Assembly (NCBI GenBank): GCA_946414595.1
Contig: CAMKPE010000006.1
Coordinates: 15,953 to 79,952, forward strand
Length of the DNA stretch: 64,000 nt
Origin: an uncultured Clostridium sp.
GTDB lineage: Bacteria; Bacillota_I; Bacilli_A; RF39; UBA660
Direction: 5' to 3'
Shown here piece by piece: positions 3,965 through 56,590 of the stretch. A model generated the notes under the pieces. That model was not told where the DNA came from. It saw only the letters and a list, made by a program, of their open reading frames with translations, and ran no database searches. The stretch's first letter is position 1; every line of letters starts with the position of its first letter. A program made the position numbers and the translations under genes.

Positions 3965-5380
3965 TTAAATCTCTTCTATTTTCATAAAATTTGTCTGCTT
4001 TATTGCTCTATTATGATGTATTCCACCAGTAATAATTATTATGTCTTCTGACTTAAGTCCTAAGAATAATATTGCTTCTTGTCTTGCATTATTTACTGTC
4101 TCATCCATATCATCATCTTTAACTAAACTTGTAACAATTGGATATACTCCATAGTTAAGTAATAGCTTTCTTGCAACTGCTTCATTAGGACACAAAGCAA
4201 GTATTATTGTATGTGGTCTTAGGTTACTAATTACACGGGCACTATGCCCACCAGTTGTAGGTACTACTATTGCTTTTACATTTAATGCATTTGATGAATC
4301 AATAACTGATTTAGCAAGTGCTTCAGTTATATCTTTATTATTTAAAAGATTAAATCTAGTAGCATAATAATCATTCTTTTCAGATTCTTCACAAATCTTT
4401 GCCATATATTTAACTGCATCAATTGGATGTTTTCCAACAGTTGATTCACCACTTAGCATAACAGCATCAGCTCCATCTAATACAGCATTAGATATATCAG
4501 TTACTTCTGCTCTTGTAGGACGAGGTGATTCATACATTGATGCAAGCATTTCTGTTGCAACAATAACAAACTTCTCTTTTTCTCTACAAAGTCTGATCAT
4601 TTCTTTTTGAATAATAGGTAGTTTCTCTACAGCAACTTCTACTCCCAAGTCTCCTCTTGCTACCATTATTCCGTCACTCTCATCAATTATTTCATATAAG
4701 TTTTCAACACCTGTTCTACTTTCAACTTTAGAAATAATCTTCATGTCTTCTCTATTATATTGTCTTAATAACTCTTTTACTTCTTTAATATTTTCTCTTG
4801 ATTCAACAAATGAAAGTGCTATAAAGTCTCCTTCATTCTTACAAGCAAACTCAATATCTTGTCTATCTTGTTCACTCATAAATGGAATACCAAGTTTTAC
4901 TCCAGGAACTGCCATTCCTTTTTTAGATTTTAATATTCCTCCATCTTTTACTTTACAAGTTAGTCCTTCCATATCTTTATCAATTACTTCAATTTTCATT
5001 AAAGCATCTTCTAAAAGAATTGTATTACCAACATTAATTTTATCTAATACATCAGGATGGTTTACTCCAAAATAATTGTCTTGTCCAACAACTTTATTTT
5101 TAACTATTCTTACTGTTTCTCCTGGAACTAGTTTAATTCCTTCTTCTACAATTTCTCCACATCTAAAATCAGGACCTTTTGTATCATATAAGATAGCTAC
5201 TGGTCTATTTGTTTTAGCTCTTACTTCTTTAACGACATTTAAAATATGAAGATATTCTTCATTATTACCATGTGAGAAATTAACTCTTGCAACATTCATT
5301 CCATTTAGAACCATTTCACTCATAACGTCTACAGTTTGACTTGCTGGTCCAATACTACAAATTATCTTAGTTTTTTTCAT
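3965..5380 (-). CDS. pyk: Pyruvate kinase
   Basis: 471 aa. Starts MKKTKIICSIGPAS and contains MVARGDLGVE, both typical of Pyk. AGGTGG RBS. Confidence 0.95.
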   Translation of the reverse strand: MKKTKIICSIGPASQTVDVMSEMVLNGMNVARVNFSHGNNEEYLHILNVVKEVRAKTNRPVAILYDTKGPDFRCGEIVEEGIKLVPGETVRIVKNKVVGQDNYFGVNHPDVLDKINVGNTILLEDALMKIEVIDKDMEGLTCKVKDGGILKSKKGMAVPGVKLGIPFMSEQDRQDIEFACKNEGDFIALSFVESRENIKEVKELLRQYNREDMKIISKVESRTGVENLYEIIDESDGIMVARGDLGVEVAVEKLPIIQKEMIRLCREKEKFVIVATEMLASMYESPRPTRAEVTDISNAVLDGADAVMLSGESTVGKHPIDAVKYMAKICEESEKNDYYATRFNLLNNKDITEALAKSVIDSSNALNVKAIVVPTTGGHSARVISNLRPHTIILALCPNEAVARKLLLNYGVYPIVTSLVKDDDMDETVNNARQEAILFLGLKSEDIIIITGGIHHNRAIKQTNFMKIEEI

Positions 5381-5457
5381 CTATACCACCTATTATAAAT
5401 TATATATTAGTTATCTTTTTTTTACAATTAAGATACAAAGTTTATTTTTCTTTTACG

Positions 5458-5485
5458 TAAAAAAAGAATAGTAATCTACTATTCT
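5458..5485 (-). terminator. Rho-independent terminator overlapping the stop codon of the 5479-6312 ORF
   Basis: Perfect 9-bp stem AGAATAGTA/TACTATTCT (5465-5473 and 5477-5485) with a 3-nt loop, followed by a U-run on the minus strand (A-run 5459-5465). Confidence 0.6.
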
Positions 5486-6312
5486 CTTATTATTGAATAT
5501 AAATAATAATTATCATTTGAATCTAATTTAAATGTCCATTTATAAGTATACTCTGCATATGGATTTAAAATACCATGATTTCTAAAAGTTACTTTCTCAT
5601 ATAAATATGCTTCTCTATTATCATCTGAATAATCTACTTTTGTGTAGTGATATTCATAAATAGGATTATCTTCTAGACCTCCAGTTCTACTAGTATATTG
5701 ATAATATTTCTTTCCGTTTTCTTCAACAACAACATATGAAAATTCATATGGAACATTATCGCTACTAGTATAAGTTAATAAATCATCACTAAATTCTAAT
5801 TCGTCTCCAACTAATTCATATAAGTAATCTGCAAATAATTTTCTAGTTGGTTCATATTCAAGTAAATAATCATATCCTGGATCATAAGTTACAAAACCAT
5901 TTGCATCATGTTGTACTCCACTACCTTCAACTTTATATTGTACTTGTTTTTCATATACTTTTTGGTGAAGAATATAAAATAATTCTGCCGCTGTTAAATC
6001 CTTAGCATAAGTTGCTTCCCTATTATAAACTTCTTTTTCAAATCCAACTTGACTAGCTGTTTCCCAAGATGATTTGTGGAAATTTTCATATTCATTTGTA
6101 TCAAACTCTACTCTTTTATGGGTATTATTATCACCTGTTGTATTTTCTTCTACTTTGTTTTCATTAGATCCACCAAATGGATTTAAAATAAATAGTAAAC
6201 CAATAATAAGGCATACTACAACAACTATTGCTATTATTATTTTAACTAGATTATTATTCTTTTTTTCTTCTTTTACTTCAGTATTATTATTCTCTTCCAT
6301 CTTATCCTCCAT
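5479..6312 (-). CDS. Membrane-anchored hypothetical protein (N-terminal TM helix, Tyr/Glu-rich ectodomain)
   Basis: ORF with one hydrophobic helix, IIIAIVVVVCLIIGLLFIL. The internal ATG at 6300 has the better GGAGG RBS, so the true start may be 6300. Confidence 0.6.
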   Translation of the reverse strand: MEDKMEENNNTEVKEEKKNNNLVKIIIAIVVVVCLIIGLLFILNPFGGSNENKVEENTTGDNNTHKRVEFDTNEYENFHKSSWETASQVGFEKEVYNREATYAKDLTAAELFYILHQKVYEKQVQYKVEGSGVQHDANGFVTYDPGYDYLLEYEPTRKLFADYLYELVGDELEFSDDLLTYTSSDNVPYEFSYVVVEENGKKYYQYTSRTGGLEDNPIYEYHYTKVDYSDDNREAYLYEKVTFRNHGILNPYAEYTYKWTFKLDSNDNYYLYSIIRE

Positions 6313-6401
6313 ACTATAGTAATCGTATTAAATATTATTGTATTTGTCAATTGTTAAAATAACATATTATTATCTATTTCATAAACTACTATAGGTGTAT
6401 T

Positions 6402-7145
6402 ATGAACAATAGTAATTTTAAATATAAAAAATATGGTAATAGTAATAAAGTTCTAATAATTCTTCCTGGATGGGGAAATACTAGAAAAACTTTTGATTTT
6501 TATATTAATAATTTAAAAGATAAATTTACTATCTATATATTTGATTATCCTGGTTTTGGAGAAAGTTTATTCCCAAATAATGATTTAACTATATATGATT
6601 ATGCTTTATATATTAAAAGATTTATTGAAGATAATAGTATTAATAAGCCATATATTCTTTGTCACTCTTTTGGTTGTAGAATATCCATTCTTCTTATTGG
6701 TAAGTATAGAGTTCTTGTTGATAAGCTAATAATCATTGGTGGTGCTGGTATTAGAAGACATAGTATTAAAAGATATTTAAGAACAAAGAAATATAAGCTT
6801 CTAAAAAAGTTAAGTGTCTTTATTCCTAAAAAGAAAAGATATATTTATTTAAATAAATTAAGAAATAAATACTCATCAAATGATTATAAAGATTTATCTA
6901 GTAATATGAAGAATACTTTTAATAATATTATCAATGCTGATTTAAGAAAGTATTTAAAATATATCTATACTCCTAGTTTATTAATCTGGGGAGAAAAGGA
7001 TACTTCTACGCCTTTAAAAGATGGCAAACTAATGAATAGAAAAATAAATAATTCTGGATTAATTACAATAAAAAAAGGAACACACTTTGTTTATTTAGAG
7101 TATCCCTTTTATATTTTAAAAATTATTTTATTTTTCTTTAATTAG
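6402..7145 (+). CDS. Alpha/beta-fold hydrolase
   Basis: 247 aa. Contains PGWG, the nucleophile elbow CHSFGC and LLIWGEKDTSTP. Paralogous to the 24630-25361 gene. It is one of only three plus-strand CDS, and its 3' end overlaps the aspS 3' end. Confidence 0.75.
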   Translation: MNNSNFKYKKYGNSNKVLIILPGWGNTRKTFDFYINNLKDKFTIYIFDYPGFGESLFPNNDLTIYDYALYIKRFIEDNSINKPYILCHSFGCRISILLIGKYRVLVDKLIIIGGAGIRRHSIKRYLRTKKYKLLKKLSVFIPKKKRYIYLNKLRNKYSSNDYKDLSSNMKNTFNNIINADLRKYLKYIYTPSLLIWGEKDTSTPLKDGKLMNRKINNSGLITIKKGTHFVYLEYPFYILKIILFFFN

Positions 7146-8873
7146 TAATCCTAAATCATCTAATTGTTTTTGTGAAACAACTCCTGGAGCTTCATTCATT
7201 AGGTCTTGTGCACTAGCTGTCTTAGGGAATGCTACTACATCACGAATGTTATCAGTTCCAGCTAAAATCATTACTAATCTTTCAAGTCCAATACCTACTC
7301 CACAGTGAGGAGGTGCCCCATATTTGAATGCATCGATGAAGAATCCAAATTTCTCTCTTGCTTCTTCTTCAGTCATTTCGATTGCTTCAAATACTTTAGC
7401 TTGAGTTTCAGAATCATGTATTCTTACTGATCCACTCAATAGTTCATAACCATTTAGTACTAAGTCATACGCTCTTGAATAGCAATGTTCTTTATCTGTT
7501 AACAACTTATCCATATCTTCTTTTCTTGGTGAAGTAAATGGATGATGAGCTGCTACAAATCTTTGTTCTTCTTCAGAATATTCAAACATTGGGAAATCAG
7601 TAACCCATAAGAAATTATATTTTCCTTCAGGTATTAAGTTAAAGTCTTTAGCAAGCTTTATTCTTAAAGCTCCTAATGCTGGTTTAACTACTTTTCTTTT
7701 ATCTGCAACAACAAATACTATATCGTTATTTTCAAGATTTAATAATTTAATTAAATCTTCTTTTTCTTTATCGTCCATTACTTTAAAGATTGATCCAGAT
7801 AATTCATTATTTGTATATTTTAAATATGATAATGCTTTTGCTTTATATACTTTTACTAAATCAGTTAATTTATCTATATCTTTTCTTGATAAATCTTCAG
7901 CATGATTTTTAAGTACTAATGCATTGATTATTCCACCATCACTGATAATGTTTTTAAATATTTCAAAATCAGTATTTTTAAATACTTCAGTAATATCTTG
8001 AAGTTCCATTTCATATCTTGTATCTGGTTTATCACTACCATAACGATTGATACATTCATCATATGGAATTCTTACAAAAGGTTCTAGATCAACATTTTTA
8101 ATTTCTTTAAATATTTTCTTCATCAATCCTTCAGTAGTTGCCCAAATATCTTCTTCGCTTGAGAAACTTTGTTCAATGTCTATTTGAGTGAATTCTGGTT
8201 GTCTATCTGCTCTTAAGTCTTCATCTCTAAAACATCTTGCAATTTGGAAGTATTTCTCCATTCCACCAATCATTAATAATTGTTTAAATATTTGTGGTGA
8301 TTGTGGAAGTGCATAGAAATGCCCATTATATATTCTTGATGGTACTAGATAGTCTCTTGCTCCTTCTGGTGTTGGTACACATAGAATTGGAGTTTCTACT
8401 TCTATAAATCCATTATCTGATAAATAGTTTCTTGTTATCATTGTAACTTTATGTCTTAACATTAAGTTATTCTTTAAAGATTCTCTTCTTAAGTCTAAGA
8501 ATCTGTATTTTAATCTTGTATCTTCAAGTGCCGTTGTATTATCACTTATTTCAAATGGTATATCTATTGATTGATTGATAAGTTCTAACTCATCAACGAT
8601 TACTTCAATTTCTCCAGTAGGAAGTTTTGGATTTTTGCTTTCTCTTTCGTTTATTGTTCCAACTGCTCTAATAACTGATTCAGTTTTTAGTGATGTTGCA
8701 ATATCATAATATTTATTTTCTGGTCTTACAATTAATTGAATTATTCCAGATCTATCTCTTAAGTCGATAAATACTAATCCACCTAAGTCTCTTTTCTTTT
8801 GAACCCATCCATATAGTTCAACAGTTTCTCCAACATTCTTGATATTGAATTCACCATTATTATATTTTTTCAT
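7128..8873 (-). CDS. aspS: Aspartyl-tRNA synthetase
   Basis: 581 aa. Contains the class II motif FQIARCFRDEDLRADRQPEFTQID. Its start shares one nt with the hisS stop (TAATG). Confidence 0.97.
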   Translation of the reverse strand: MKKYNNGEFNIKNVGETVELYGWVQKKRDLGGLVFIDLRDRSGIIQLIVRPENKYYDIATSLKTESVIRAVGTINERESKNPKLPTGEIEVIVDELELINQSIDIPFEISDNTTALEDTRLKYRFLDLRRESLKNNLMLRHKVTMITRNYLSDNGFIEVETPILCVPTPEGARDYLVPSRIYNGHFYALPQSPQIFKQLLMIGGMEKYFQIARCFRDEDLRADRQPEFTQIDIEQSFSSEEDIWATTEGLMKKIFKEIKNVDLEPFVRIPYDECINRYGSDKPDTRYEMELQDITEVFKNTDFEIFKNIISDGGIINALVLKNHAEDLSRKDIDKLTDLVKVYKAKALSYLKYTNNELSGSIFKVMDDKEKEDLIKLLNLENNDIVFVVADKRKVVKPALGALRIKLAKDFNLIPEGKYNFLWVTDFPMFEYSEEEQRFVAAHHPFTSPRKEDMDKLLTDKEHCYSRAYDLVLNGYELLSGSVRIHDSETQAKVFEAIEMTEEEAREKFGFFIDAFKYGAPPHCGVGIGLERLVMILAGTDNIRDVVAFPKTASAQDLMNEAPGVVSQKQLDDLGLLIKEK

Positions 8874-10261
8874 TATTCATCTTCTCCTTCATGATGCCAT
8901 TCGCAGTGCTTTCCACAACTACATTCATGATCTTCTCCATGGTGATGTCCACAATGGCATTCTTCTTCATCACCAAAATCATAATCATAATCTTCTTCAG
9001 ATAAATGTTCATCCAAGAAATATAGTAAGTAGTCAACACTAACTATTTCTTCTTCTTTTGTTTTATTATTTTTAATCTTTATTTCATCTTTAGCTAAATC
9101 TTCATCATTTAAAATAATTAAATATTTAGCATTTAATCTATCTGCTTGTTTGAATTGTGCTTTTAATCCACGTCCAGTATATTCAGTATCTACTCTATAA
9201 CCATTTGCTCTTAAATATTGAACTAAACTTGCTGCATATTTCTTTTCTGTATCAGATACATACATAACAAATAATTCAACATCATCAATTATAGGTAATT
9301 TAACTTCTTCTAAGTCAAGTGCTTGTACAAGTCTTCCTAGTCCTGTTGCAAATCCCATACAACAAGTTTCTGGACCATCTAATGTTTCAACAAGTCCATT
9401 ATATCTTCCACCTGCTCCAATAACATTATTTGATCCAAATCCTTCAACACTTGCTTCTATTTCAAATACTGTATGATTATAGTAATCAAGTCCTCTAACA
9501 AGTCTTGGATCTACTTCATAATCTATTTCTAATTCTTCTAAGTAAGATTTAACTTCTTCAAATCTCTTCTTACTTTCTTCATTTAAATACTCAATAGTTG
9601 TAGGAGCATTCTTTAATATCTCACTATCTTTATCAACTTTACAATCTAAGATTCTAAGAGGATTCTTATTTAATCTATCATTACAATCTTCACATAAGTC
9701 TTTTATTTTTGGAGTGAAATATTTAATAAGTGCATCTCTATAATTATCACGAGATTCTTTATCTCCTAAAGAATTAATCTTTACTTTAATTCCTTTTAGT
9801 CCAAGCATTTTGTATAAAAGGACTGGAATAGATATAACTTCTGCATCAACAAGTGGATCGTTAGACCCTAAAACTTCTACTCCAAATTGAGTAAATTCTC
9901 TATCTCTTCCTGATTGTGGTCTTTCATATCTATACATTGTTCCATTGTAGTAAACTTTAACAGGTCCTGGTTCTCCATACATTTTGTTTTCGATATAACT
10001 TCTAACAATACCTGCAGTTCCTTCTGGTCTTAATGTAATAGATCTATCTCCTCTATCTTTGAAGTCATAAGTTTCTTTAGTTACTATGTCAGTAGTTTCT
10101 CCAACTCCTCTATGGAACAAATCACTGCTTTCAAATATTGGAGTTCTAGCATATGTATAGTTATATTTCTCCATTAAACTGTCGATAACTTTATCAACGT
10201 ATTTCCATTTCTTTGCTTCAAGTCCTACTAAATCATGACATCCCTTTGGTTTTGTAATCAT
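8873..10261 (-). CDS. hisS: Histidyl-tRNA synthetase with an acidic His/Cys-rich C-terminal tail
   Basis: Contains RYERPQSGRDREFTQFG and GGRYNGLV. Start placed at the ATG at 10259-10261 (MITKPKGCHDL) behind an AAGGAGG RBS; the track start at 10294 lies inside the T-box terminator. Confidence 0.95.
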   Translation of the reverse strand: MITKPKGCHDLVGLEAKKWKYVDKVIDSLMEKYNYTYARTPIFESSDLFHRGVGETTDIVTKETYDFKDRGDRSITLRPEGTAGIVRSYIENKMYGEPGPVKVYYNGTMYRYERPQSGRDREFTQFGVEVLGSNDPLVDAEVISIPVLLYKMLGLKGIKVKINSLGDKESRDNYRDALIKYFTPKIKDLCEDCNDRLNKNPLRILDCKVDKDSEILKNAPTTIEYLNEESKKRFEEVKSYLEELEIDYEVDPRLVRGLDYYNHTVFEIEASVEGFGSNNVIGAGGRYNGLVETLDGPETCCMGFATGLGRLVQALDLEEVKLPIIDDVELFVMYVSDTEKKYAASLVQYLRANGYRVDTEYTGRGLKAQFKQADRLNAKYLIILNDEDLAKDEIKIKNNKTKEEEIVSVDYLLYFLDEHLSEEDYDYDFGDEEECHCGHHHGEDHECSCGKHCEWHHEGEDE

Positions 10262-10273
10262 AATAATCCTCCT

Positions 10274-10478
10274 TAAAAAATAAAAAGATGGCAAGTAAAG
10301 GACGAGTTTCCCCGTGGTGCCACCTTATTTCCATAATTAATTTATGCTTATTAGTGATAACGCTTACAAGCGATTCTTTTATTAACACAAGTGTCTTTCA
10401 TTAATTCATCTTAAGTATTTTCATCAACCATACTCTTTCTACAAAGAATCTTTAATTACTCCTCTTGCAAAAGACAAA
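10274..10478 (-). promoter_or_regulatory. T-box leader (tRNA-sensing riboswitch) of the hisS-aspS operon
   Basis: The minus-strand RNA carries the T-box sequence AAUAAGGUGGCACCACGGGG (about 10308-10330). A terminator AAGGUGGCA...UGCCAUCUU plus U-run lies at about 10274-10326. A Stem I specifier-loop context reads GAAAGACACUUGU. Confidence 0.85.
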
Positions 10479-30041: not shown

Positions 30042-30734
30042 TTATTCCTTATTATTTTTCAAAAATTCTCTAAGCATTTTCATAAGAGCTCTTTTTTCAA
30101 TTCTAGAGACATAACTTCTTGATATATTAAACTCTTTTGCTATTTGTTTTTGCGTTAATTCTATAGTGTTATTTAATCCATATCTTTTAATTATTATTTC
30201 CTTTTCCCTATCGTTTAATACTTCAAAATACTTCTTTAATAGTTTTATATTCTCCTTTTCTGTTATCTTTTCTACATAATCTTCGCTAGGAATCTTAAGA
30301 ATATCAAGTATGGTAATTTCATTTCCTTCTTTATCGTACCCAATTGATTCGTTAATTGATATATTCTTATTTGTCTTATTATTACTTCTAAAATACATTA
30401 AGATTTCGTTTTCTATACATCTAGCACAATAAGTTGTTATTCTTGTTCCTTCATTTTGCTTATAAGTATCAATTCCTTTGATTAGTCCTATAGTACCAAT
30501 ACTTATTAAGTCATCTTGATCAACATTTTTATAATCGAATTTCTTTACTATGTGTGCAACTAACCTAAGGTTATGCTCAATTAGTTTATTTCTTGCTTCT
30601 ATATCATTATGTTTAAGTTTTTCTAAAAGAATATCCTCTTCTTCTTTAGATAATGGATCTAGAAAAACATTGTTAGAATAACTCGCTGTAAATAAAAATA
30701 ATTCTTTTATTTTTTTAATTAATTTAAAAAACAT
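30042..30734 (-). CDS. sigK: Sporulation sigma factor, SigK-like (pro-sigma with an N-terminal leader), uninterrupted
   Basis: 230 aa. IEHNLRLVAHIVKKF, TYCARCIENEILMYFR and ISRSYVSRIEKRALMKM match SigK strings as I recall them. The N-terminal ...FTASYSNNVFLDPLSKEEE resembles the pro-sigma-K processing region. Confidence 0.8.
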   Translation of the reverse strand: MFFKLIKKIKELFLFTASYSNNVFLDPLSKEEEDILLEKLKHNDIEARNKLIEHNLRLVAHIVKKFDYKNVDQDDLISIGTIGLIKGIDTYKQNEGTRITTYCARCIENEILMYFRSNNKTNKNISINESIGYDKEGNEITILDILKIPSEDYVEKITEKENIKLLKKYFEVLNDREKEIIIKRYGLNNTIELTQKQIAKEFNISRSYVSRIEKRALMKMLREFLKNNKE

Positions 30735-30775
30735 ATAACTCCTCCATTAGAATTATATGTTTTATACTTTATTAT

Positions 30776-39370: not shown

Positions 39371-39447
39371 TGGCGCCCCAACTAGGACTTGAACCTAGGA
39401 CCCCTTGATTAACAGTCAAGTGCTCTAACCGACTGAGCTATTGAGGC
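39371..39447 (-). tRNA. tRNA-Asn (GUU)
   Basis: Acceptor GCCUCAA/UUGGGGC, D arm GCUC...GAGC, anticodon stem CUUGA/UCAAG with loop CUGUUAA, T arm CUAGG-UUCAAGU-CCUAG. CCA is encoded. Confidence 0.9.
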
Positions 39448-39451
39448 AAAC

Positions 39452-39528
<77 letters not shown>

Positions 39529-44951: not shown

Positions 44952-45180
44952 AAAAAAACTCCTCCTTAACTATATTTAAGGACGAGTTAACCGCGGTACC
45001 ACCTTATTTCGTAGAATAATTTCTACACGCTTAATACTTTAACGCAAGTAATACGGATATCTCCTATTTACTTAGAGAATCTACTCAGTTGCTACCTTCT
45101 ATTATATTAATTATTAGTTTCCACCATCCACTAACTCTCTATAAATCTTTATAATATACTCCTCAACTTCAATGTAATTA
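44952..45180 (-). promoter_or_regulatory. T-box leader (Val specifier) controlling the HDIG gene and valS
   Basis: The minus-strand RNA has an AGAGAG bay, a GUGGAUGGUGGAAAC distal region, the specifier context GAAG-GUA-G-CAACU (GUA at 45093-45095) and the T-box AAUAAGGUGGUACCGCGG. The terminator is AACUCGUCCUUAA/UUAAGGAGGAGUU plus U7 (44952-44988). Confidence 0.85.
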
Positions 45181-45185
45181 TCAGT

Positions 45186-45218: not shown

Positions 45219-46913
45219 TTATTGAACAGTATATGGATGATCAAATGTTCCATTACCACCAGAAATTGTTACAGTGCTCTTTAAGTTAATCACTGGTTTT
45301 ACTCCAGAATATTCTTCTATTCCTTTTGAACTAATTCCTTCTGTAGGTAATACTACTATTAATTTATCTTCCTCTTCTTCAGTAGCTTTCTTTAAGTTAT
45401 TAAGTGTCCAATACTCTTTATTTGAAGGTATTGTATACATTTCACCTAATCTTGGTATCGCTACTTTCATACTATGGATATCTGTTGTTTGACACGCTGT
45501 TGTTTGTGGTGTTGATTTATCCATTGCATTACGACAGAAGTCTCCACTTTCTAGTTTATCTGCTATAGGAACTGCCCATGTATTATTTAGGTAATCTCCT
45601 ATATATGTATCATCTGAATATACTTTGTTGAAGTAGTGGAATTGTAAGTCAGTTATATTTAATGTATCTACTGCAACTAAACGAGTATATTTACTTGTTT
45701 TTGAAGATATTCTAAATTTCATTCCATTAATTGATACATATTCTCCTGGGAATCTAGTATTTAAATTAGCTCCAATATTTCCTGCATTATCTCCTAGAAG
45801 TTTATATGGATTTGATTGAGTTCCTTGACCACCTGAAATTATTGATACGCTTGGCCTTAATACTATTGAAGGTCTTACTCCATAGTATTCATTAACTACT
45901 CCGCTCTTTGCTGTGTTATCTCTTCCTACATACCAAACACTACTATTATCTTTATTAGATAATAACCAATAAGTTTTTCCTGTATTTAAGAATCCACCAA
46001 TCTTACTATATTCGTATAAATTCAACATACCAACTTTTGAAGTTGATTTTTTATCTCCTGTTGGTGCTGCATTTCCATTGCTTACTTGTGAATAATTCCA
46101 TTCAGTATCTAATATATATCTATTTGGATTATTTAATGTACCTAAGAATATATTATTTAACCAAACATTAACATTACTTGAATGATAATCATTAGATACT
46201 GCATCATATGTTACTATTGATTGAATATCATCAGTTACCAGTTTAACTGTTCTATCATTAGTGTTGAATCCTACAATTCTCCACATCTTACCTGAATACC
46301 ATACATAGTTATTTGTTGATGTTCCAGAAACAATGTAATTATTACCTGATGATGTAACTGTAGTTAACTTAGTTGTACTTGCTGGATCAGATATTGCTTT
46401 TATTAAAGAGTTTGATACTTCTGCAACATACTTGTTACAAGCACCCTCTTTTTCTATTAATTTTGTGTAATATACTTTCTTAGAATTTTTCTTCTTACAA
46501 ATCATACTAAATTGAGTACTTATTACACCATTTTTATTTTCTATTCTTATGTTAACATATTTAGAAGGATCAATATCTACTTGTGATAATTCATCTGCTG
46601 AGAAATCACCTGGAGATTTACATTCTACATTACTATCATTTTCAAATTCTTTGACATAGTTTTCTTGTACTAATTGTGAAATAGTTGCATCATCAACACA
46701 ACCAGAAACACCTACACCACCTATGTCATCTTTTCTTGTTCTAGAATACATTTCGACGGCTTTTTCTACAACACCATAATATGTTTCATATTCTTTTTCT
46801 TCATTATCACGCATTAATCTTGAAGTTGCTGGGAATACAATCAAAAGTATTAATCCCATCATTACGACTACCGCAATTAATTCAATTAAAGTAAATCCTT
46901 TATCTTTCTTCAT
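45219..46913 (-). CDS. Type IV pilin-like (prepilin N-terminus) protein with two large repeated beta-rich modules
   Basis: Start set at MKKDKG|FTLIELIAVVVMMGLILLIVFP (ATG at 46913, AGGTGA RBS), the class III signal/N-methylation motif. Two modules end GVRPSIVLRPSVSIISGGQGTQSNPYKL and GVKPVINLKSTVTISGGNGTFDHPYTV. Confidence 0.75.
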   Translation of the reverse strand: MKKDKGFTLIELIAVVVMMGLILLIVFPATSRLMRDNEEKEYETYYGVVEKAVEMYSRTRKDDIGGVGVSGCVDDATISQLVQENYVKEFENDSNVECKSPGDFSADELSQVDIDPSKYVNIRIENKNGVISTQFSMICKKKNSKKVYYTKLIEKEGACNKYVAEVSNSLIKAISDPASTTKLTTVTSSGNNYIVSGTSTNNYVWYSGKMWRIVGFNTNDRTVKLVTDDIQSIVTYDAVSNDYHSSNVNVWLNNIFLGTLNNPNRYILDTEWNYSQVSNGNAAPTGDKKSTSKVGMLNLYEYSKIGGFLNTGKTYWLLSNKDNSSVWYVGRDNTAKSGVVNEYYGVRPSIVLRPSVSIISGGQGTQSNPYKLLGDNAGNIGANLNTRFPGEYVSINGMKFRISSKTSKYTRLVAVDTLNITDLQFHYFNKVYSDDTYIGDYLNNTWAVPIADKLESGDFCRNAMDKSTPQTTACQTTDIHSMKVAIPRLGEMYTIPSNKEYWTLNNLKKATEEEEDKLIVVLPTEGISSKGIEEYSGVKPVINLKSTVTISGGNGTFDHPYTVQ

Positions 46914-47017
46914 GTTTTCATCACCTATCATATATTAAAATTATATCATAAATTATTATATATATCTTATTTTTTTATATCTTGATGTAAAGTGAAACAT
47001 ATAATATTTTAGGTGAT

Positions 47018-48789: not shown

Positions 48790-49458
48790 CTAGATTTCTT
48801 CATCTAGCATTTTTATTTCATTAATTATTTCTTCAGTTTTCTTATTATCCTTTGGAATACTTTTTAATATGTTATTATCTACTTCTTTTAAATAATTAAA
48901 GTATTGATAAAAGAGTTCATCTTTATTATTTAAAAGTAATGGTCCAAAGAATAATTCTTTTTTATTATACTTTTTATTTCCTTTGATAAATTCCATTATT
49001 ATATAGTATTTATCTTCTTCATAGACAATTCTTTCATCGTTTATTATAAATCCCATTTCACTAATATCTTTTCTTAGTCTTTCAAATTTATTATTTGATG
49101 AAATTATTAATCTATCAACATGTTCTAAATATTCTTTACCATTATTTAGTATATCGACTATTGTTTCTTCTCCCATACCTGATATTACTGCTGTATCGAT
49201 AAAGTCATCTAAAACTCCTAATCCATCTTGCAATCTAAGTTCAATTTTATTTAAAAAAGAATATTTTTCAATATTCTTTTTAGCACTTCTTAATGGTTTT
49301 TCTCTTAAGTCAGATGCAATTATTCTTAAATCTTCATTATTTTGTAATAAATAGATATCAAGTAATGCATGATCACATCCAACATCGATAATACCACTTG
49401 TTTGTTGTTTTAATACTATGTCTGCTACTGTTTTAAGTCTATTGCTAATATTAATCAA
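48790..49458 (-). CDS. trmK: tRNA (adenine22-N1)-methyltransferase TrmK
   Basis: 222 aa. Contains RLKTVADIV and [16 protein letters not shown]. Sits downstream of sigA, like yqfN in Bacillus. Confidence 0.85.
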
Positions 49459-50539
49459 TTAAGAAATCCTTTAATTTTCTTGAACGAGATGGATGTCTTA
49501 GTTTTCTTAAAGCTTTAGCTTCAATTTGTCTTATTCTTTCACGAGTAACTCCGAAGATTTGTCCAACTTCTTCAAGTGTTCTACATTGCCCATCATCAAG
49601 ACCAAATCTTAGTCTTAAAACTTTTTCTTCTCTATCAGTAAGTGTTAATAAAACACTTGCAAGTTCTTCTTTTAACATTTCTACTGTTGCATATTCTTCA
49701 GGAGACATTGTTCTTTCATCTTTAATGAAATCTCCTAAGTGAGAGTCATCTTCTTCTCCAATTGGAGTCTCTAAAGATACTGGATCTTGAGATATTTTGT
49801 AAACTTCTCTTACTTTATCAACAGTTACACCAAGTTTCTTAGCAAGTTCTTCTTCAGTTGGCTCACGATTTAACTCTTGAGTTAATTGTCTTTGAACTCT
49901 TGCTAATTTATTGATTGTTTCTACCATATGTACTGGTACACGAATTGTTCTTGCTTGGTCAGCGATTGCTCTTGTTATAGCTTGTCTAATCCACCAAGTT
50001 GCATATGTTGAGAATTTGTATCCTTTTGATGGATCAAATTTATCAACAGCTTTCATAAGACCAATGTTTCCTTCTTGAATTAAATCAAGGAATAACATTC
50101 CGCGTCCTACATATCTTTTTGCAATACTAACAACAAGTCTTAGGTTTGATTCTGCTAACATTTTCTTAGCATATTCGTCCCCTTGCTCAGCTAGTTTTGC
50201 ATATTCAAATTCTTCATCAGTTGTTAATAGGTTTATTCTACCTATTTCTTTTAAATACATTCTGACTGGGTCATTTATTTTAATGTCTTTTGACATTGTT
50301 AAGTCTTCAACTACTAATCCAGATGGATCTTCATCGTCTGTAGAGTTATCTGCAGTTTCACTTATAATTTCAATATTGTTTTCAACAAGTGTGTTATATA
50401 AATCATCAAGTGTATCACTATCTACATCTAATCCTTTTAATTCTTCAACCAATTGTTCGTAAGTAACATATCCTTGTTTCTTACCTGCTTCTATTAAGGA
50501 TTTTTTTCTTTCTTCGATAGTTTTAATTTCTCCAATCAT
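49451..50539 (-). CDS. sigA: Primary RNA polymerase sigma factor SigA/RpoD
   Basis: Start set at [10 protein letters not shown] (ATG at 50539, GGGGAG RBS). Contains [47 protein letters not shown] and [28 protein letters not shown]. Confidence 0.95.
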
Positions 50540-50543
50540 GATT

Positions 50544-52274
50544 TCACTCCCCAATTCTTAGTTTCCTTATTCTTTCCAAAATCTCAATTTTCTCATTTTC
50601 ATCAGGTACTTTTCTCATCAATTGCTCTAAACGCTTTATCTCTTGTCTAGTGTTATAATCACTAATGACACTTATATATTCTTCTATTGTACTATCTGAT
50701 ATTTCTTCACTTAAGTTAAGATTTTGTACTTCGTTAAATACTCCTAATAATTCTTTCTTATCATTTAAATACGTATAAAAATCTGCAATATTTATATCTC
50801 CATACTCATGGTAATAATAACTAATCTCAGCAGCAAGATTTCTCGTATCAGCATCAATGAAATAAAGCTTTTTACTATCATATACTTTTATAACTTTTGG
50901 GTTAATAAGCATATAATAAATGAATTCATGACTAGCTCTTTCATACTTATCTTTCTTTAAATCTTTTCTTTTGATAGTATTATTTTCAATTTTAGTTCGT
51001 TCTTGTTCGTTCAGATTTCTGTACTCATTAAATTTTTTTTCTAGTGTATTATAACTCAAATTAGTCTCATTTGCAAGTTTTTTGAGCATTATTTCACATC
51101 TAATCTCATCATTTATTGATGATATTTCTTTAATAACTTTATTAACATAATTTGATAGTTCTAAATCACTATCAAAATTAACATTATTCTTTAATCTTTC
51201 TATCTTAAAATCACTGTAGTTAAGCGCTCCATCGATAAGTGCTTTAAACTTTTCTTCTCCATATTTTAAGATATATGAATCTGGATCTTCATCATCAGTT
51301 AAACATACTACTTTAACATTTAATCCAGCTTTCTCTAATAACTCACCATTATGTAGATCAGCATCTTGTCCAGGATTATCTCCATCAAGACATAAATATA
51401 CATTTAATGATAACTTTTTAATTAATGATATTTGTTCTTCTGTTAAGGCAGTTCCCATTAGCGCTATTGTATTTTTAATACCAATAGTACTTGCTCTTAT
51501 AACATCCATGAATCCTTCCATAACAATAACGTATTTAGCAAGTCTTACATGTTCTTTTGATGCATTATAGTGATATAGACAAGTTCCTTTTCTAAATATA
51601 GGAGTCTCTTTAGTATTCATATATTTACTCATTTTAGAATTATCATAAATTCTTCCTGAGAATCCTACTATTCTTCCATTTCTATCATCAAGTGGGAAGA
51701 TAATTCTATTAATAAAAGTATCTATATCATTATTAGCAAGTCCTAAATCATTTAAAGTATTAATATCATATTTTCTTTCTTTTAAATACTTTATTAATTT
51801 ATCTTTTTCATCAAGTGCTAAACCTATACCAAATTCTTTGATTGTTTCACTATCTATTCCTCTTTTATTAAGATATTCGATAGCATTCTTACCTTTATCA
51901 GTATTAATCATTAATTGGTAATACTTTGCAGTTAATTCATAAATATCATAGTATTTTGTATATTTACTACTAAAATCACTTTTATAACCTTCTAGTTTAA
52001 TTCCTACTCTATCAGCAAGTTTCTTTAAGGCTTCTTTAAATGAGATGTTTTCTATTTGTTCTACAAAATTAAAAACATTCCCACTATTATGACAACTCCA
52101 ACATGTATATGTTTGTCTTTTTTCATCTACACTCATTGATGGATTCTTGTCATTATGAAAAGGACATATCCCCCAGTAATATTGCCCTTTTTTTGTAAGA
52201 GGAACATATTCGCTAATTAAATCAACAATATTAATTTTACTTCTTATTTCATTTATATCGTTTTGATTATTCAT
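50544..52274 (-). CDS. dnaG: DNA primase
   Basis: Has the zinc finger [13 protein letters not shown] and a TOPRIM region with [11 protein letters not shown] at 52274 follows AGGAGG (the track start is a GTG at 52280). Confidence 0.95.
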
Positions 52275-52343: not shown

Positions 52344-52620
52344 ATAAAAAAACTAGCATAAGCTAGTTTTCTTAAATTATACTTCGGTGCATCATCCTCT
52401 CGTGTTTATTTTTTTTAATCTATTTTAAACCTTATAGGCTAATCCTCCTTTACAATTATATTTTTTTCTTTCCGAACGAACAAGTTTATTGCTCTTGGCA
52501 ATAATCAATTTATTTTTATAAATCTTAAATAGCATCACTGCTATGATTTAACCTATTTAATTGTCAAACAACGTCTTCTTCTATATGCTTCATCTCCTTT
52601 TGTAATTTAAGTATACTAAA
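52344..52620 (-). ncRNA. Candidate small non-coding transcript between the sigma-like gene and dnaG
   Basis: Putative promoter TTGACA(52647-52652)-18 nt-CATAAT(52623-52628). Hairpins at 52529-52544 (GUGA loop) and 52486-52504. Terminator AAACTAGC/GCTAGTTT plus U-run at 52344-52370. No credible ORF. Confidence 0.3.
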
Positions 52621-52762
52621 AAATTATGGTAGAATTTTGGGATAATTGTCAAAAATGTGTGAATGTTTTTAGAATGTTTTTTCATATTCTCAAAAAGTTT
52701 CTTAAAGCCTTATATTTAAAGCGTTTTGTGAAGTTATAAATGATTGTCAATTAAAGTGTTAA

Positions 52763-52791
52763 ATGAAAAAAGAAGTTATTTTATTAACTTC
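52763..52791 (-). terminator. Terminator hairpin overlapping the stop codon of the 905-aa sigma-like gene
   Basis: 7-bp stem GAAGTTA/TAACTTC (52772-52778 and 52785-52791) with a 6-nt loop and a U6 run on the minus strand. Confidence 0.55.
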
Positions 52792-55501
52792 CTTTTATTG
52801 TTCTTAATTTCTTAGCAAGTGCTGGTGGTTTTGTACCTGGACCAGGATTATCTCCTAGTTCTGATGGTTCATTCATCATAGCAAGTATTTCAGCATTTAT
52901 TTCTTTTGGTTGTTCTTTATCACTAGATTCTCTTTCAATTCCAGCATTTTCATAGAGTTTATTTATGTATTCTTCTATTTCAGCCTTTTCTTCTTCTGTT
53001 GGTTGTCGTTTAGTAACTCTTTGAAGTCTTGGTGAATCAATTTTCTTCTTTAAGATTTTAAAAATACTCATAAACTTCTCTTTGCCTTTTGGATCAAGAG
53101 TGGAAACTGGATTATCTAAATCATTTCCATTTCTTTTCTTAAAGATTCTTAATTCTTCAATTGTTAATATTTCAAGTGCTGCAATTAATTGTTCTTTTGT
53201 ACAATTTAGTATTTCGCATAATGGTGTTACTGCTCTTCCCATACCATCACTCTCTTCTTTTGGCTTTTCAACCACTTTTGTTTCTTCTTGTACTTTTGTT
53301 TCTTTTACTGTTTCTACAACAGGTGCTGATTGTTCAATATGTGGTTCTTCTTTTGCAGGTACAATTTCTTTCTCTTCTACAGCAATTGGCATATCCATTA
53401 TTACTGGTTTTGGTACTTCTATAGGTTCAGCAGATCTATGTACTTTTTCACCAGTGTATTCTTCATATAATTCAATTGCTTTTTCATTTCCTGGTTGAAC
53501 TAATTCTGTTTTAAACTTTTGTACTGCACTCTTAATTTTTTGTTTACTCAATCCGCAAGCTGCAGAAACCATTTCTTCAGATTGTCTTGTTCCTGCTTCA
53601 AATCCAAAAATTCTTGCTGCCACTGCTTCTTCAAGGCTAGATAAATTACACATTAAACTAATTTTTTTGCATACTTGCATTCCTTTGCTTCTTATCATAG
53701 TAGAATAATCAACTCTTGCTATGCAATTATTTAAAATTCTTCTAGCAGTTGGATCTTTATATAATTTTTCATGGAATGTTTCAGATATTTTTTCGATATC
53801 TTTTGGCTTATATCCTACTAAAGAAGCAATTCTAACTAAACTCTTTGGAACACCATCTACTAATCCATATTCTAGTTGAATAATATAAAATTCTTTATCC
53901 GTTAATCCTAATCTATCTTTTAATTCTTCAAAATCATCAGTTGGGTTAGTTGAGTCAACAATAGACATACGTTGTCTTGGTTTATATGCACTTCTTGATT
54001 TTGATTGAGTAGTAGTACTACTGATTCCAAATTCAGGAAGTTTACCATATTCTTCTAGTTTTTTTCTACATTTTGGACTTTTTAGTTTTCTTAATGCCTT
54101 TGCTTCTATTTGTCTAATTCTTTCTCTTGTAACATTGAAATCTTTTCCTATTTCTTCAAGTGTCTCTATTCTTCCTGTATCAAAACCAAATCTTCTTTTT
54201 ATGACCATTACTTCTCTTTTTTTGAAATATCCGCTTTCAAATAATTCTTCAAAGATTTCTCTTAAAGCACTACCAAATATAACAGTATCTTCAACATTTT
54301 CATCTGATTCAATAAATTGTTGAAGTTCTGAGTCTTCATCACCATCTTTAGATATTGGTGTACTTAAACTTACTGGTTCAGTTGCAACTTGTCTAATGTT
54401 CTTTAACTTCTCTTCTGTAATACCCATCCTTTTAGAAAGTTCTTCATCTGTTGGTTCACGACCTAGTTCTCCAGTTAAGTATCTTTCTTCTCTTACCATT
54501 TTATTAATTGTTTCTACCATATGAACTGGTACACGAATTGTTCTTGCTTGATCAGCAATTGCTCTTGTCACAGCTTGTCTAATCCACCAAGTAGCATATG
54601 TAGAAAATCTAAAACCTTTTTTAGGATCGAATTTTTCAGAAGCTTTAATTAATCCTAGATTTCCTTCTTGAATTAAATCTAAGAATAGCAATCCATGTCC
54701 AACATATCTTTTAGCAATACTTACTACTAATCTTAAGTTATGTTCAACGAATTCATTTTTAGCACTTTCATCGCCTGCTTCAATTCTTTTTCCTAATGCT
54801 ATTTCTTCATCTACAGTAAGAAGTGGAATTTTTCCGCATTCTCTCATGTATTGACGAACAGGATCATCACAATAAACCTCTTCATCTCCTGCGTAATAAT
54901 ACTCTTCTTCTTTTGGTTCAATTACCTGTATTTCATTAAGCTCACAATATGTTTCAACAAAGAACATTACAAGTGGACTATCAGTAATTTTTATTACATC
55001 ATCCTTAGCAACTGTTTTTTCATTTTTCTTGTATACTCTGTTTATTATTGCAACAACACCTTGAATAAACTTATCATTGTTATTTAAAAGATTAATAACA
55101 AATTCTTTGCTTGGTAATGCATCAAACATTTCACAAATATCACTTAGCTTATTTAAAGCAGAAACGTTTTTTGTTAATTCATTGCTTGTACCTGGAAAAG
55201 TTTTATTTATGTAATTAGTAAATAATTGTTTTTGTTTATCTTCAGGTAATTTTTGTAATATTTCTAATAGTTGTGCTCTTATTTCAATTTCTATAATACT
55301 TACATAGTCTTCATCTTGATTTTCACTAGTTAGTGTTTTAGCAATTATCTGTTTAACTACTAGTTCAAAATCTTTAGGTGCTAACTCTAAAAATTTGAAA
55401 TAATCGATATATCTTTTAACCGAAGGATAAACTAAAGAATAAATTGAATCAACGCTTTTTACTTCAATTTTTTGCTTTTCATCATCGTCAAATAAATCCA
55501 C
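52784..55501 (-). CDS. Sigma-70-family protein: group-1-like core with long N- and C-terminal extensions
   Basis: 905 aa. GTG start 8 nt after AGGAGG. The core (aa ~214-495) has [61 protein letters not shown] and [28 protein letters not shown]. About 210 aa precede the core and about 410 aa follow it. Confidence 0.85.
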
Positions 55502-55562
55502 ACAAATTGCCTCCTAACTTTTTATTGCAATATATTTTAACACTTTTGGTCAAATAAGTAAA

Positions 55563-55586
55563 CAAAAAAAAGAGCATTTTGCCCTT
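55563..55586 (-). terminator. Weak terminator after the mini-lipoprotein gene
   Basis: On the minus-strand RNA only: AAGGGCA-AAA-UGCUCUU (includes a G-U pair), followed by U8. Confidence 0.4.
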
Positions 55587-55589
55587 ATT

Positions 55590-55742
55590 TTATTGTTCAG
55601 TAACGTTTATTTTATGCATTGTTTCACTAGTTTGTTCTTCAATTGTATCATCAGTTACGTTATCTACTTTTTTAGATCCGCAACCTGTAATTATAAATAC
55701 TGAAAGAATCATTACAATTATTACTAATTTTTTATATTTCAT
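55590..55742 (-). CDS. Small lipoprotein (50 aa), not in the ORF track
   Basis: Own translation: MKYKKLVIIVMILSVFIITGCGSKKVDNVTDDTIEEQTSETMHKINVTEQ. It has an AGGAGG RBS and the lipobox IITG|C. It starts 17 nt after the stop of the pilin-like gene. Confidence 0.6.
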   Translation of the reverse strand: MKYKKLVIIVMILSVFIITGCGSKKVDNVTDDTIEEQTSETMHKINVTEQ

Positions 55743-55759: not shown

Positions 55760-56590
55760 CTATTCCGGTATCTTTATGAAATCATAAAGTACCATTCTAA
55801 ACCAATAATCTACATTTACTGTCGTTACTCTTATATCTAGTGTTGGCTGATCAACTTCTTCTGATACAACCCACGATTCATTTTTAGTTATTGTATGCCA
55901 TTTACCATCAGATGTTTGATATTCCCATCTTACTTTGTAAACATAGTTATCATAACCATTTATTTGTGAAACGAAATGTACTACATCATTATAATAAATT
56001 ACACCATTAGGTCTATCACTTACTATATCAAAATCTAGTACTACTACTCCACCAGTAATTGAGCTTACTCTTGCTATTACTGGTTTTCTAGGCCCCTTAT
56101 TACAATCTCCGTCAATTACAATGTAATATTTCTTTAAATCAAGTCCCATTCCTTCCATGATATCTTCTGTTTGAATATCTGTTTTTATTTCATCTTCATC
56201 TAAGTATGAAAATTTAAGAAATTTTTTAGTACCATGACCTGTAGTATCTACGCTTGTCCAATAATAAGTATATTTATTTCCGTTAAAAGTAACTATTATA
56301 TACGCCTTATCAAATTCTCCATATGGACTTTTTAAACCGTTTTCTGTACTGATACATTTTACATCAATATAGTATGTAACATCAGTATCATACATCTCAA
56401 GTTTTCCTTCATTAACTAGATTTCTTGTTGCTCCGATTACTTCTTTTGCAGTATCAATATATGCACTCTTTCTTGTATCTTGTATATACTGTGTGACACT
56501 AGGTACTGCAATAATCATTAAAACTCCTAAAATAATTATAACTGCTAATAATTCAATAAGTGTAAATCCCTTTTCATTACGCTTTTTCAT
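55760..56590 (-). CDS. Type IV pilin-like (prepilin N-terminus) protein
   Basis: 276 aa. MKKRNEKG|FTLIELLAVIIILGVLMIIAVP is the prepilin cleavage/methylation motif with Glu at +5. A beta-rich C-domain follows. Confidence 0.75.
   Translation of the reverse strand: MKKRNEKGFTLIELLAVIIILGVLMIIAVPSVTQYIQDTRKSAYIDTAKEVIGATRNLVNEGKLEMYDTDVTYYIDVKCISTENGLKSPYGEFDKAYIIVTFNGNKYTYYWTSVDTTGHGTKKFLKFSYLDEDEIKTDIQTEDIMEGMGLDLKKYYIVIDGDCNKGPRKPVIARVSSITGGVVVLDFDIVSDRPNGVIYYNDVVHFVSQINGYDNYVYKVRWEYQTSDGKWHTITKNESWVVSEEVDQPTLDIRVTTVNVDYWFRMVLYDFIKIPE

Follow-up and report, generated by a model that had tools for sequence, protein, structure and literature searches.

The stretch of DNA analysed here, called the window, comprises 64,000 nucleotides (nt) of an uncultured Clostridium sp. 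of the RF39 lineage (assembly GCA_946414595.1, contig CAMKPE010000006.1, positions 15,953 to 79,952 of the forward strand). One of its loci shows the gene order polC, a prepilin-type gene, a small lipoprotein open reading frame (ORF), the gene under study, a conserved non-coding unit, dnaG, sigA and trmK. The gene under study encodes a protein of 905 amino acids (AA), referred to below as the giant sigma. It is a sigma-70-family factor whose architecture is undescribed, as is the family that can be delineated around it. An original prediction, made from the letters of the window, had proposed a SigA-like core, a novel N-domain, two sigma-4-like modules and a partial third one. All of these components are present.

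The sigma core and its comparison with SigA

The gene, the regions of its core and the paralogue used for comparison are the following.

52784..55501, minus strand: giant sigma ORF, 905 AA, GTG start, TAA stop
54767..54865, minus strand: sigma region 1.2, residues 213-245 (Pfam PF00140 Sigma70_r1_2, 55.6 bits)
54539..54751, minus strand: sigma region 2, residues 251-321 (PF04542, 83.9 bits, cut-off 24)
54293..54514, minus strand: sigma region 3, residues 330-403 (PF04539, 67.6 bits)
54068..54253, minus strand: canonical sigma region 4, residues 417-478, of which Pfam covers 429-474 (PF04545, 50 bits, cut-off 24.1)
54507..54601, minus strand: 95-nt tract of regions 2.4/3.0, 89/95 nt identical to sigA 49914-50008
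49451..50554, minus strand: housekeeping sigA, the comparator paralogue, in the dnaG-sigA operon, region 1.1 present

Residues 213-478 form a complete sigma-70 core composed of regions 1.2, 2, 3 and 4, without region 1.1. Region 2 of sigma factors is involved in core binding and -10 recognition, while region 4 is a helix-turn-helix (HTH) that recognises the -35 element. The canonical region 4 of the giant sigma includes the recognition helix and is matched by the hidden Markov model (HMM) of the family with 100.5 bits. The region 1.1 profile of Pfam (PF03979) has no match in the giant sigma, whereas the neighbouring SigA has one (52.7 bits). The statement that every group-1 region is present therefore stands for regions 1.2, 2, 3 and 4 but has to be corrected for region 1.1.

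The best NCBIfam model is RpoD (NF006666), with 397 bits, which falls short of the equivalog cut-off (572), whereas SigA passes it with 598 bits. The giant sigma falls below every RpoD equivalog cut-off of NCBIfam. Its core is 57.7% identical to SigA over 274 AA. Identity reaches 77-90% in region 2 and 90% at residues 297-337 (regions 2.4/3.0), in agreement with the near-identity of the promoter-contacting segments noticed at the outset. At the DNA level, the predicted count of 89 identical nt out of 95 between 54507-54601 and 49914-50008 is exact. Third-codon-position identity to sigA is 0.78-0.85 in this tract versus 0.66 overall. Gene conversion with sigA is suggested but not demonstrable from these values, the rise being slight and the codon bias of the genome strong.

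Complete regions 1.2, 2, 3 and 4 are shared with both group 1 sigmas (SigA/RpoD) and group 2 sigmas (actinobacterial SigB/Hrd, cyanobacterial SigB-E, RpoS). The likeness to primary sigmas extends to the -10 and -35 segments, near-identical to those of the SigA of the same genome, and to the RpoD models as best matches. Judged from its sequence, the giant sigma is thus a genuine and intact sigma-70-family factor of the primary-like type. With a core close to SigA and region 1.1 missing, it resembles the group 2 sigmas. It differs from group 1 in carrying, instead of region 1.1, an unrelated acidic domain of about 200 AA. Primary-like second sigmas are not a known feature in Bacilli.

Domains flanking the core

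Primary-type sigmas are very uniform and normally end right after region 4.2. Compared with groups 1 and 2, the giant sigma has about 420 extra residues behind this region. These residues and the domain preceding the core can be divided as follows.

54890..55501, minus strand: N-domain, residues 1-204, acidic, all-alpha, about nine helices, at the position of region 1.1
53738..53932, minus strand: module A, residues 524-588, first extra sigma-4-like HTH
53489..53695, minus strand: module B, residues 603-671, second extra sigma-4-like HTH, net charge +5
53243..53434, minus strand: acidic linker rich in E, K, V and P, residues 690-753, net charge -9, predicted to be disordered (predicted local distance difference test, pLDDT, < 50)
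53027..53242, minus strand: module C, residues 754-825, degenerate sigma-4 derivative (family HMM, 93.5 bits)
52787..53026, minus strand: C-terminal tail, residues 826-905, lacking in the alignment the module D of most relatives

Modules A and B are securely identified as sigma-4 folds by profiles, reciprocal HMM matches and an AlphaFold model. Aligned by hhalign with a profile of genuine region 4, module A reaches a probability of 97.8% (score 61, 59 columns; shuffle maximum 13), module B 97.6% (score 59, 55 columns) and module D, taken from the relatives, 96.3% (score 48, 52 columns). None of the column-shuffled or reversed controls exceeded 17 for modules A-D. Reciprocally, HMMs built from modules A, B and D alone match region 4 of SigA with 21.6, 29.1 and 19.2 bits respectively, and they also match a third sigma-like ORF of the window (30045-30746). 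The NCBIfam models RpoD_Cterm (E = 8.5e-4) and SigB (E ~1e-3) align their own region 4 to module A. A second significant region-4 stretch is detected by Pfam itself in four relatives (L003b, L004, P0036 and P0014).

The gapless alignment on which the two modules were originally proposed was repeated with BLOSUM62 scores. Residues 623-667 score 42 against the sigma-4 segment (11/45 identical) and residues 536-580 score 25 (10/45 identical), for a null of 300 shuffles of the extension with a 95th percentile of 21 and a maximum of 28. The first value lies above all 300 shuffles and the second under their maximum, so that segment 623-667 is clearly above chance while segment 536-580 is borderline.

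Residues 486-905 were modelled with AlphaFold from a 9-row family alignment. Modules A and B form one continuous, confidently predicted stretch (residues 525-685, pLDDT > 90). In a Foldseek search of the PDB with the model, isolated SigA region-4 domains make up the ten best matches and roughly half of the best 50 (8d5v, 6onu, 4g6d, 1ku7, 3n97 and 1ku3 are among the top ones), with target-normalised template modelling (TM) scores of 0.6-0.85, a probability of 1.0 and E-values of 0.04-1. The structure prediction proposed as a check thus recovers SigA region 4 as the best match, and the existence of two full sigma-4-like modules behind the core is borne out by hhalign, the reciprocal HMMs and the AlphaFold/PDB comparison alike. 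Their surfaces are variable while the hydrophobic core is retained.

The third, partial copy anticipated behind the E/K/V/P-rich linker corresponds to module C. It proved to be a distinct type of repeat, of which relatives have as many as 12 copies. Module C is characterised by the motif L-x-x-E-E-x-x-I-x-x-x-R-x-G-x-D-L-D-N-P, which corresponds to the region-4.1 helix. With hhalign it reaches a probability of 64% against region 4 (score 26, null <= 14) over 32 columns only. Its profile matches solved SigA domain-4 chains over their ~25 N-terminal residues only, that is the region-4.1 helix, and in the C repeats of relatives Pfam detects positions 1-22 only of the r4 profile. It is modelled with a pLDDT of ~88. 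From these matches, module C is a degenerate sigma-4 derivative in which the region-4.1 helix alone has been retained. An identity with the C-terminal domain of MG284/MPN403 was also considered, but the match (27 bits) is under the NCBIfam cut-off of 37.3 and the literature gave no lead.

Module D is absent, by module HMM, from the giant sigma and from all encoded sequence of the window. The closest relative of the tail region, P0003, has the same tail with module D inserted. Variants without D recur in the family (L003a, P0004 and P0022). Where present, this module is 85-95% identical between relatives, versus 20-70% for the rest of the protein. Because the terminal module is missing, the giant sigma of the window is an atypical member of its family.

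The N-domain ends with a near-invariant E-x-Y-C-x-x-N-x-I motif and is matched by its family HMM with 266 bits. It is conserved in 21 of the relatives found and is acidic throughout (net charge -12 in the window protein, mean -9 across the family). Its AlphaFold model is all-alpha (pLDDT 82, predicted TM score 0.73). Searched by fold, the PDB and viral models give nothing significant (best E 1.2 and 0.18 respectively). Pfam, NCBIfam and PHROG likewise contain no entry matching the domain, and sequence matches in the PDB are limited to designed helical repeats and are therefore considered compositional. The first ~210 residues are thus as novel as initially supposed. An origin of the N-domain by degenerate sigma duplication was rejected, since its hhalign score against the family core (14.4) lies inside the shuffle range. 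The same applies to kinship with phage FliA-type sigmas or RsbN-BldN, for which the fold matches are weak (probability <= 0.23).

The family and its genomic slot

Species genomes were scanned with DnaG, giving ten related loci from metagenome-assembled genomes of rumen and gut Bacilli. Five of these loci (L003-L007) contain six further sigma paralogues with the same modular C-terminus. The distribution of the family is based on an exhaustive phmmer (HMMER) search with the C-terminal extension against 1.84 billion representative proteins, which identified 43 proteins at E <= 1e-3, 13 of them with E <= 1e-10. P0034 was set aside as apparently spurious, an unrelated repeat protein of 2002 AA in which the module HMMs find nothing. 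The module HMMs were scanned over the remaining matches, about 40 clusters, to define layouts.

The general layout is an N-domain, the core, 0-2 A/B modules, 1-12 C modules and a terminal D. Full-layout examples are P0007, P0011, P0017 and P0029, and 10-12 C repeats occur in P0014, P0018 and P0039. The window protein has the N-domain motif and at least one module C, which place it in the family, and lacks the terminal D. The same modules are found outside this layout. C-D arrays occur as free-standing proteins (P0009, P0010, P0013, P0020 and P0043), and C arrays are fused to short sigmas (P0023, P0026, P0033, P0035 and P0041). Free-standing proteins and short-sigma fusions such as P0009, P0013, P0010, P0023 and P0033 share C and D with the giant sigmas but have neither the N-domain nor the group-1-like core. 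Some of them adjoin a sigma gene or are split from it. P0009 passes the generic TIGR02937 sigma-70 superfamily cut-off; the module HMMs find no core in it and no region-2 match is listed. The occurrence of C-D arrays fused to group-1-like sigmas, fused to short sigmas or alone ties the C and D modules to sigma function.

Two loci show such genes next to each other. In L019 (8367-13303) a sigma gene of 549 AA overlaps a C11-D gene of 1100 AA by 16 nt. A protein of 1645 AA shares a 90% cluster with this C11-D protein. The L019 pair is either a natural split or an assembly frameshift. In L007, two C2-D genes lie behind the sigma gene. Another variant, P0025 (577 AA, from a metagenome), consists of the N-domain directly followed by five C repeats without a sigma core, which suggests that N-domain and C modules may act together without regions 2 to 4.

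Cluster members have no assigned protein names and all derive from metagenome assemblies. The exact 905-AA protein is a singleton cluster in the public protein collection, and an exact-sequence contig look-up with it gave no match. A word-index search with the extension returned no relatives among the 8000 candidates at which it was capped and did not recover the window's own protein either; similar searches returned only a 355-AA fragment (P0002) with the N-domain profile and only an 85-AA fragment with the module-C profile. Since these searches miss the window's own protein, their scarce results reflect the tool rather than the rarity of the family.

Neither the N-domain nor any of modules A to D is covered by a Pfam or NCBIfam model. 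In the literature, including work on MzaA, RFN20/RF39 and MG284/MPN403, no description was found of such a sigma with a C-terminal extension or an extra region 4. The architecture is therefore not a described type, as had been supposed, and the family, as far as sequences and database models can tell, is an undescribed one from uncultured low-G+C gut and rumen Bacilli. The contexts of its members are chromosomal, with housekeeping neighbours. The extension and a C-D protein have no match in phage or plasmid collections, and neither the N-domain nor the extension of the window protein has a match in PHROGs. A mobile-element or phage origin of the giant sigma was consequently dropped.

The gene order of the window recurs in L003 and L016. 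The survey of relatives, which had been proposed together with a search for synteny beside dnaG, thus found both the contiguous architecture, in many independent assemblies, and a conserved location. The polC-dnaG slot itself is variable. It is empty in L001, L002, L007 and L008; L004, L005 and L006 each carry a single sigma paralogue there, and L003 carries two. The giant sigma is therefore a presence/absence gene of this slot, with an identity of 36-47% where present. In contrast, SigA is 96-100% identical in 8/9 of the related genomes compared and still 90% identical in the most distant one, L008. The giant sigma is thus hypervariable and dispensable among close relatives, whereas SigA is strongly conserved.

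The comparison with the closest genome, L003, illustrates this difference. SigA is 100% identical, DnaG 97%, PolC 94% and TrmK 86%, and the other syntenic genes are 71-84% identical. The giant sigma is only 47% identical, versus 71-100% for the eight flanking genes. The L003 slot carries two tandem giant-sigma paralogues (4549-6741 and 6766-9615). One has 730 AA and ends after module B while the other has 949 AA and includes modules A, B, C and D. As far as module B the window protein resembles the first L003 paralogue, and its module C resembles that of the second. The giant sigma diverges far faster than its neighbours, and its modules are gained and lost.

Possible roles and further features of the locus

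The best explanation, to which we assign a probability of about 60%, is that the giant sigma is an intact primary-like sigma using SigA-type promoters and equipped with tethered accessory domains derived from sigma-4. Regions 2, 3 and 4 are near-identical to SigA at the core-binding and promoter-contact positions, so the protein should bind core RNA polymerase (RNAP) and use SigA-type promoters. It would then compete with SigA at promoters with SigA-type -10 and -35 elements. The acidic N-domain could plausibly take over the autoinhibitory, DNA-mimic role of region 1.1. The sigma-4-derived modules, carried on flexible linkers, would most likely be tethered accessory domains. They may bind other DNA sites or partners, for example RNAP surfaces or the free-standing C-D array proteins, and this binding might bias the choice among SigA-type promoters in a strain-specific manner.

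Several observations weigh against this explanation or against parts of it. The count of Pfam region-4 matches in residues 496-905, a check proposed with the original prediction, is zero: neither Sigma70_r4 nor r4_2 has a match there at E <= 1. The Foldseek E-values of modules A and B (0.04-1) are weak because the domain is small, and the models were built from shallow alignments, with 9 rows in the case of the C-terminal extension and 18 in that of the N-domain. The N-domain shows no detectable relation to region 1.1 or to any known family or fold. The -35-contacting residues of region 4.2 (E-R-x-R-Q, I) are invariant in the true region 4 of the family, but E-R-x-R-Q is not conserved in modules A and B. 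Module D of the relatives is net acidic. The lack of conserved contact residues in A and B, together with this acidic D, argues against simple DNA reading. The label "-35-reader-like" given to the modules at first therefore holds for the fold but not for the function. Since the modules retain the fold without the -35 contacts, their best reading is as accessory binding domains on a tether. The window copy, lacking D, the best-conserved module, may moreover be functionally reduced. Core binding, promoter specificity and the roles of all the extra modules are what we infer here.

A broader possibility, which we consider tentative and rather unlikely, is that the sigma-4-derived repeats (C arrays capped by D) constitute an unrecognised RNAP-associated scaffold system in reduced-genome gut and rumen Bacilli. 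If so, C-D proteins or several polymerases would be recruited by giant sigmas or would multimerise with them, and a new layer of transcription control would have been built wholly from recycled sigma domain 4.

The surplus modules might alternatively mimic the sigma-4 target of phage or host anti-sigma factors and absorb or sense them, in an arms race. This decoy or sentinel function would be consistent with the giant sigma being the most divergent gene locally (47% vs 71-100%), present or absent between related genomes, and built of modules that are gained, lost and shuffled and whose surfaces vary around a conserved hydrophobic core. Moreover, the nearest non-housekeeping model in both NCBIfam and PADLOC is MzaA (NF041931, PDLC02203), the sigma of the MZA anti-phage system. 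MzaA is likewise a long sigma-70-family protein in which a large non-sigma part precedes a group-1-like core. However, the match is limited to the shared sigma core (310.9 bits vs a cut-off of 800), covering positions 474-713 of the NCBIfam model and 429-665 of 683 in the PADLOC model, and the MzaA model has no counterpart of the C-terminal sigma-4-derived modules. No MZA partner gene lies beside the giant sigma, whose neighbours are polC, the prepilin-type gene, the small lipoprotein ORF, dnaG and sigA, and more generally no defence genes occur near it in the window, L016, L017, L018 or L019, where the neighbours are housekeeping genes. Together with the lack of matches in phage and plasmid collections, this makes a decoy role improbable.

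Cis-autoinhibition, in which the C-terminal modules would fold onto the protein's own region 2/4 or compete for the beta-flap until a signal is received, also appears improbable. The modules are carried on long flexible linkers and share the fold that docks on the beta-flap. A precedent exists in extracytoplasmic function (ECF, group 4) sigmas with regulatory C-terminal extensions, such as the SnoaL-type SigG1 (PMC7730460) and OrbS (PMC9023288). In these proteins too, the sigma continues past region 4 with an extra domain thought to modulate its own activity. ECF sigmas have only regions 2 and 4, however, and their extensions (SnoaL, Cys-rich and others) are not sigma-derived, whereas the giant sigma has a four-region primary-type core, with regions 1.2 and 3 present, and an extension of duplicated sigma-4 folds. 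Furthermore, intramolecular masking alone would hardly account for arrays with as many as 12 C modules or for free-standing C-D proteins.

Finally, a degenerating sigA duplicate, or a fusion by mis-assembly or frameshift, is highly improbable: the window copy does lack module D and the L019 equivalent is split into two overlapping ORFs, but 905 codons are open at a genome G+C of 28%, the core-binding and promoter-contact residues are intact, all modules are confidently folded in the model, and the contiguous architecture recurs in many independent assemblies, which argues against a fusion artefact.

The uniformity of primary-type sigmas is broken here in three ways. Region 1.1 is replaced, domain 4 is reused in C-terminal arrays, and modules are rapidly gained and lost. 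Small-genome Bacilli are thought to have few regulators. If the giant sigma is active, it would provide them with a second SigA-like initiation factor and with a new way to diversify promoter use or polymerase interactions. The A-B unit, C and D offer testable handles on roles of sigma domain 4 away from the -35 element.

Putative expression signals surround the gene.

55570-55586, minus strand: terminator of the gene upstream of the giant sigma, with the promoter-like site directly downstream
55534..55562, minus strand: promoter-like TTTACT-17-TAAAAT with an extended -10 TG, a consensus match only
55510..55515, minus strand: ribosome-binding site (RBS) AGGAGG, 8 nt before the GTG of the giant sigma, read from the sequence
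52767..52796, minus strand: hairpin and U-run overlapping the giant-sigma stop codon, probable intrinsic terminator

The hairpin has 12 bp and a predicted stability of -10.1 kcal/mol (z = -5.5), equalled by 0/200 shuffles. It was missed by a consensus terminator scan because it has too few G-C pairs. The RBS and the GTG start attributed to the gene are thus found, and so is a probable terminator of its own. The number of promoter-like sites in this region is not above the shuffle expectation. G+C content is 24-32% across the whole window, and the giant sigma marks no compositional break.

Two genes of the window encode prepilin-type N-termini (KGFTLIELxAV), both on the minus strand. The first (55760-56590, 276 AA) immediately precedes the giant sigma within the variable slot, as in L003 and L016, and the second (45219-46931, 570 AA) lies downstream of dnaG-sigA-trmK and is conserved in 7/9 of the relatives compared. 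PADLOC gives no match for either. Between the first one and the giant sigma lies a small ORF (55590-55742, minus strand; about 50 AA) with a lipoprotein-like signal (…ITGCGSKK); L016 has an ORF of 53 AA at this position.

The conserved non-coding unit (52345-52660, minus strand) lies between the sigma slot and dnaG, and all ten relatives compared have it, also where the slot is empty. Rfam gives no match even at E <= 1. Its elements are a promoter-like site (TTGACA-18-CATAAT), a conserved AAAGGAG that precedes a mini-ORF of four codons (ATG..ATA TAG), a hairpin that is likewise conserved (ATAGCA..TGCTAT) and a strong terminator at 52374-52345, after which comes the dnaG promoter (52324-52297). 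This unit may be a small RNA or a leader.

The third sigma-like ORF (30045-30746, minus strand, about 233 AA) has a region 4 matched by the family region-4 HMM as well as by the module HMMs. In PADLOC it matches MzaA over the shared sigma part only, plus two weak HTH models. Elsewhere in the window, two T-box leaders (133 and 95 bits) and two adjacent tRNA genes are located at 44975-45181, 10295-10475 and 39374-39528, all on the minus strand.

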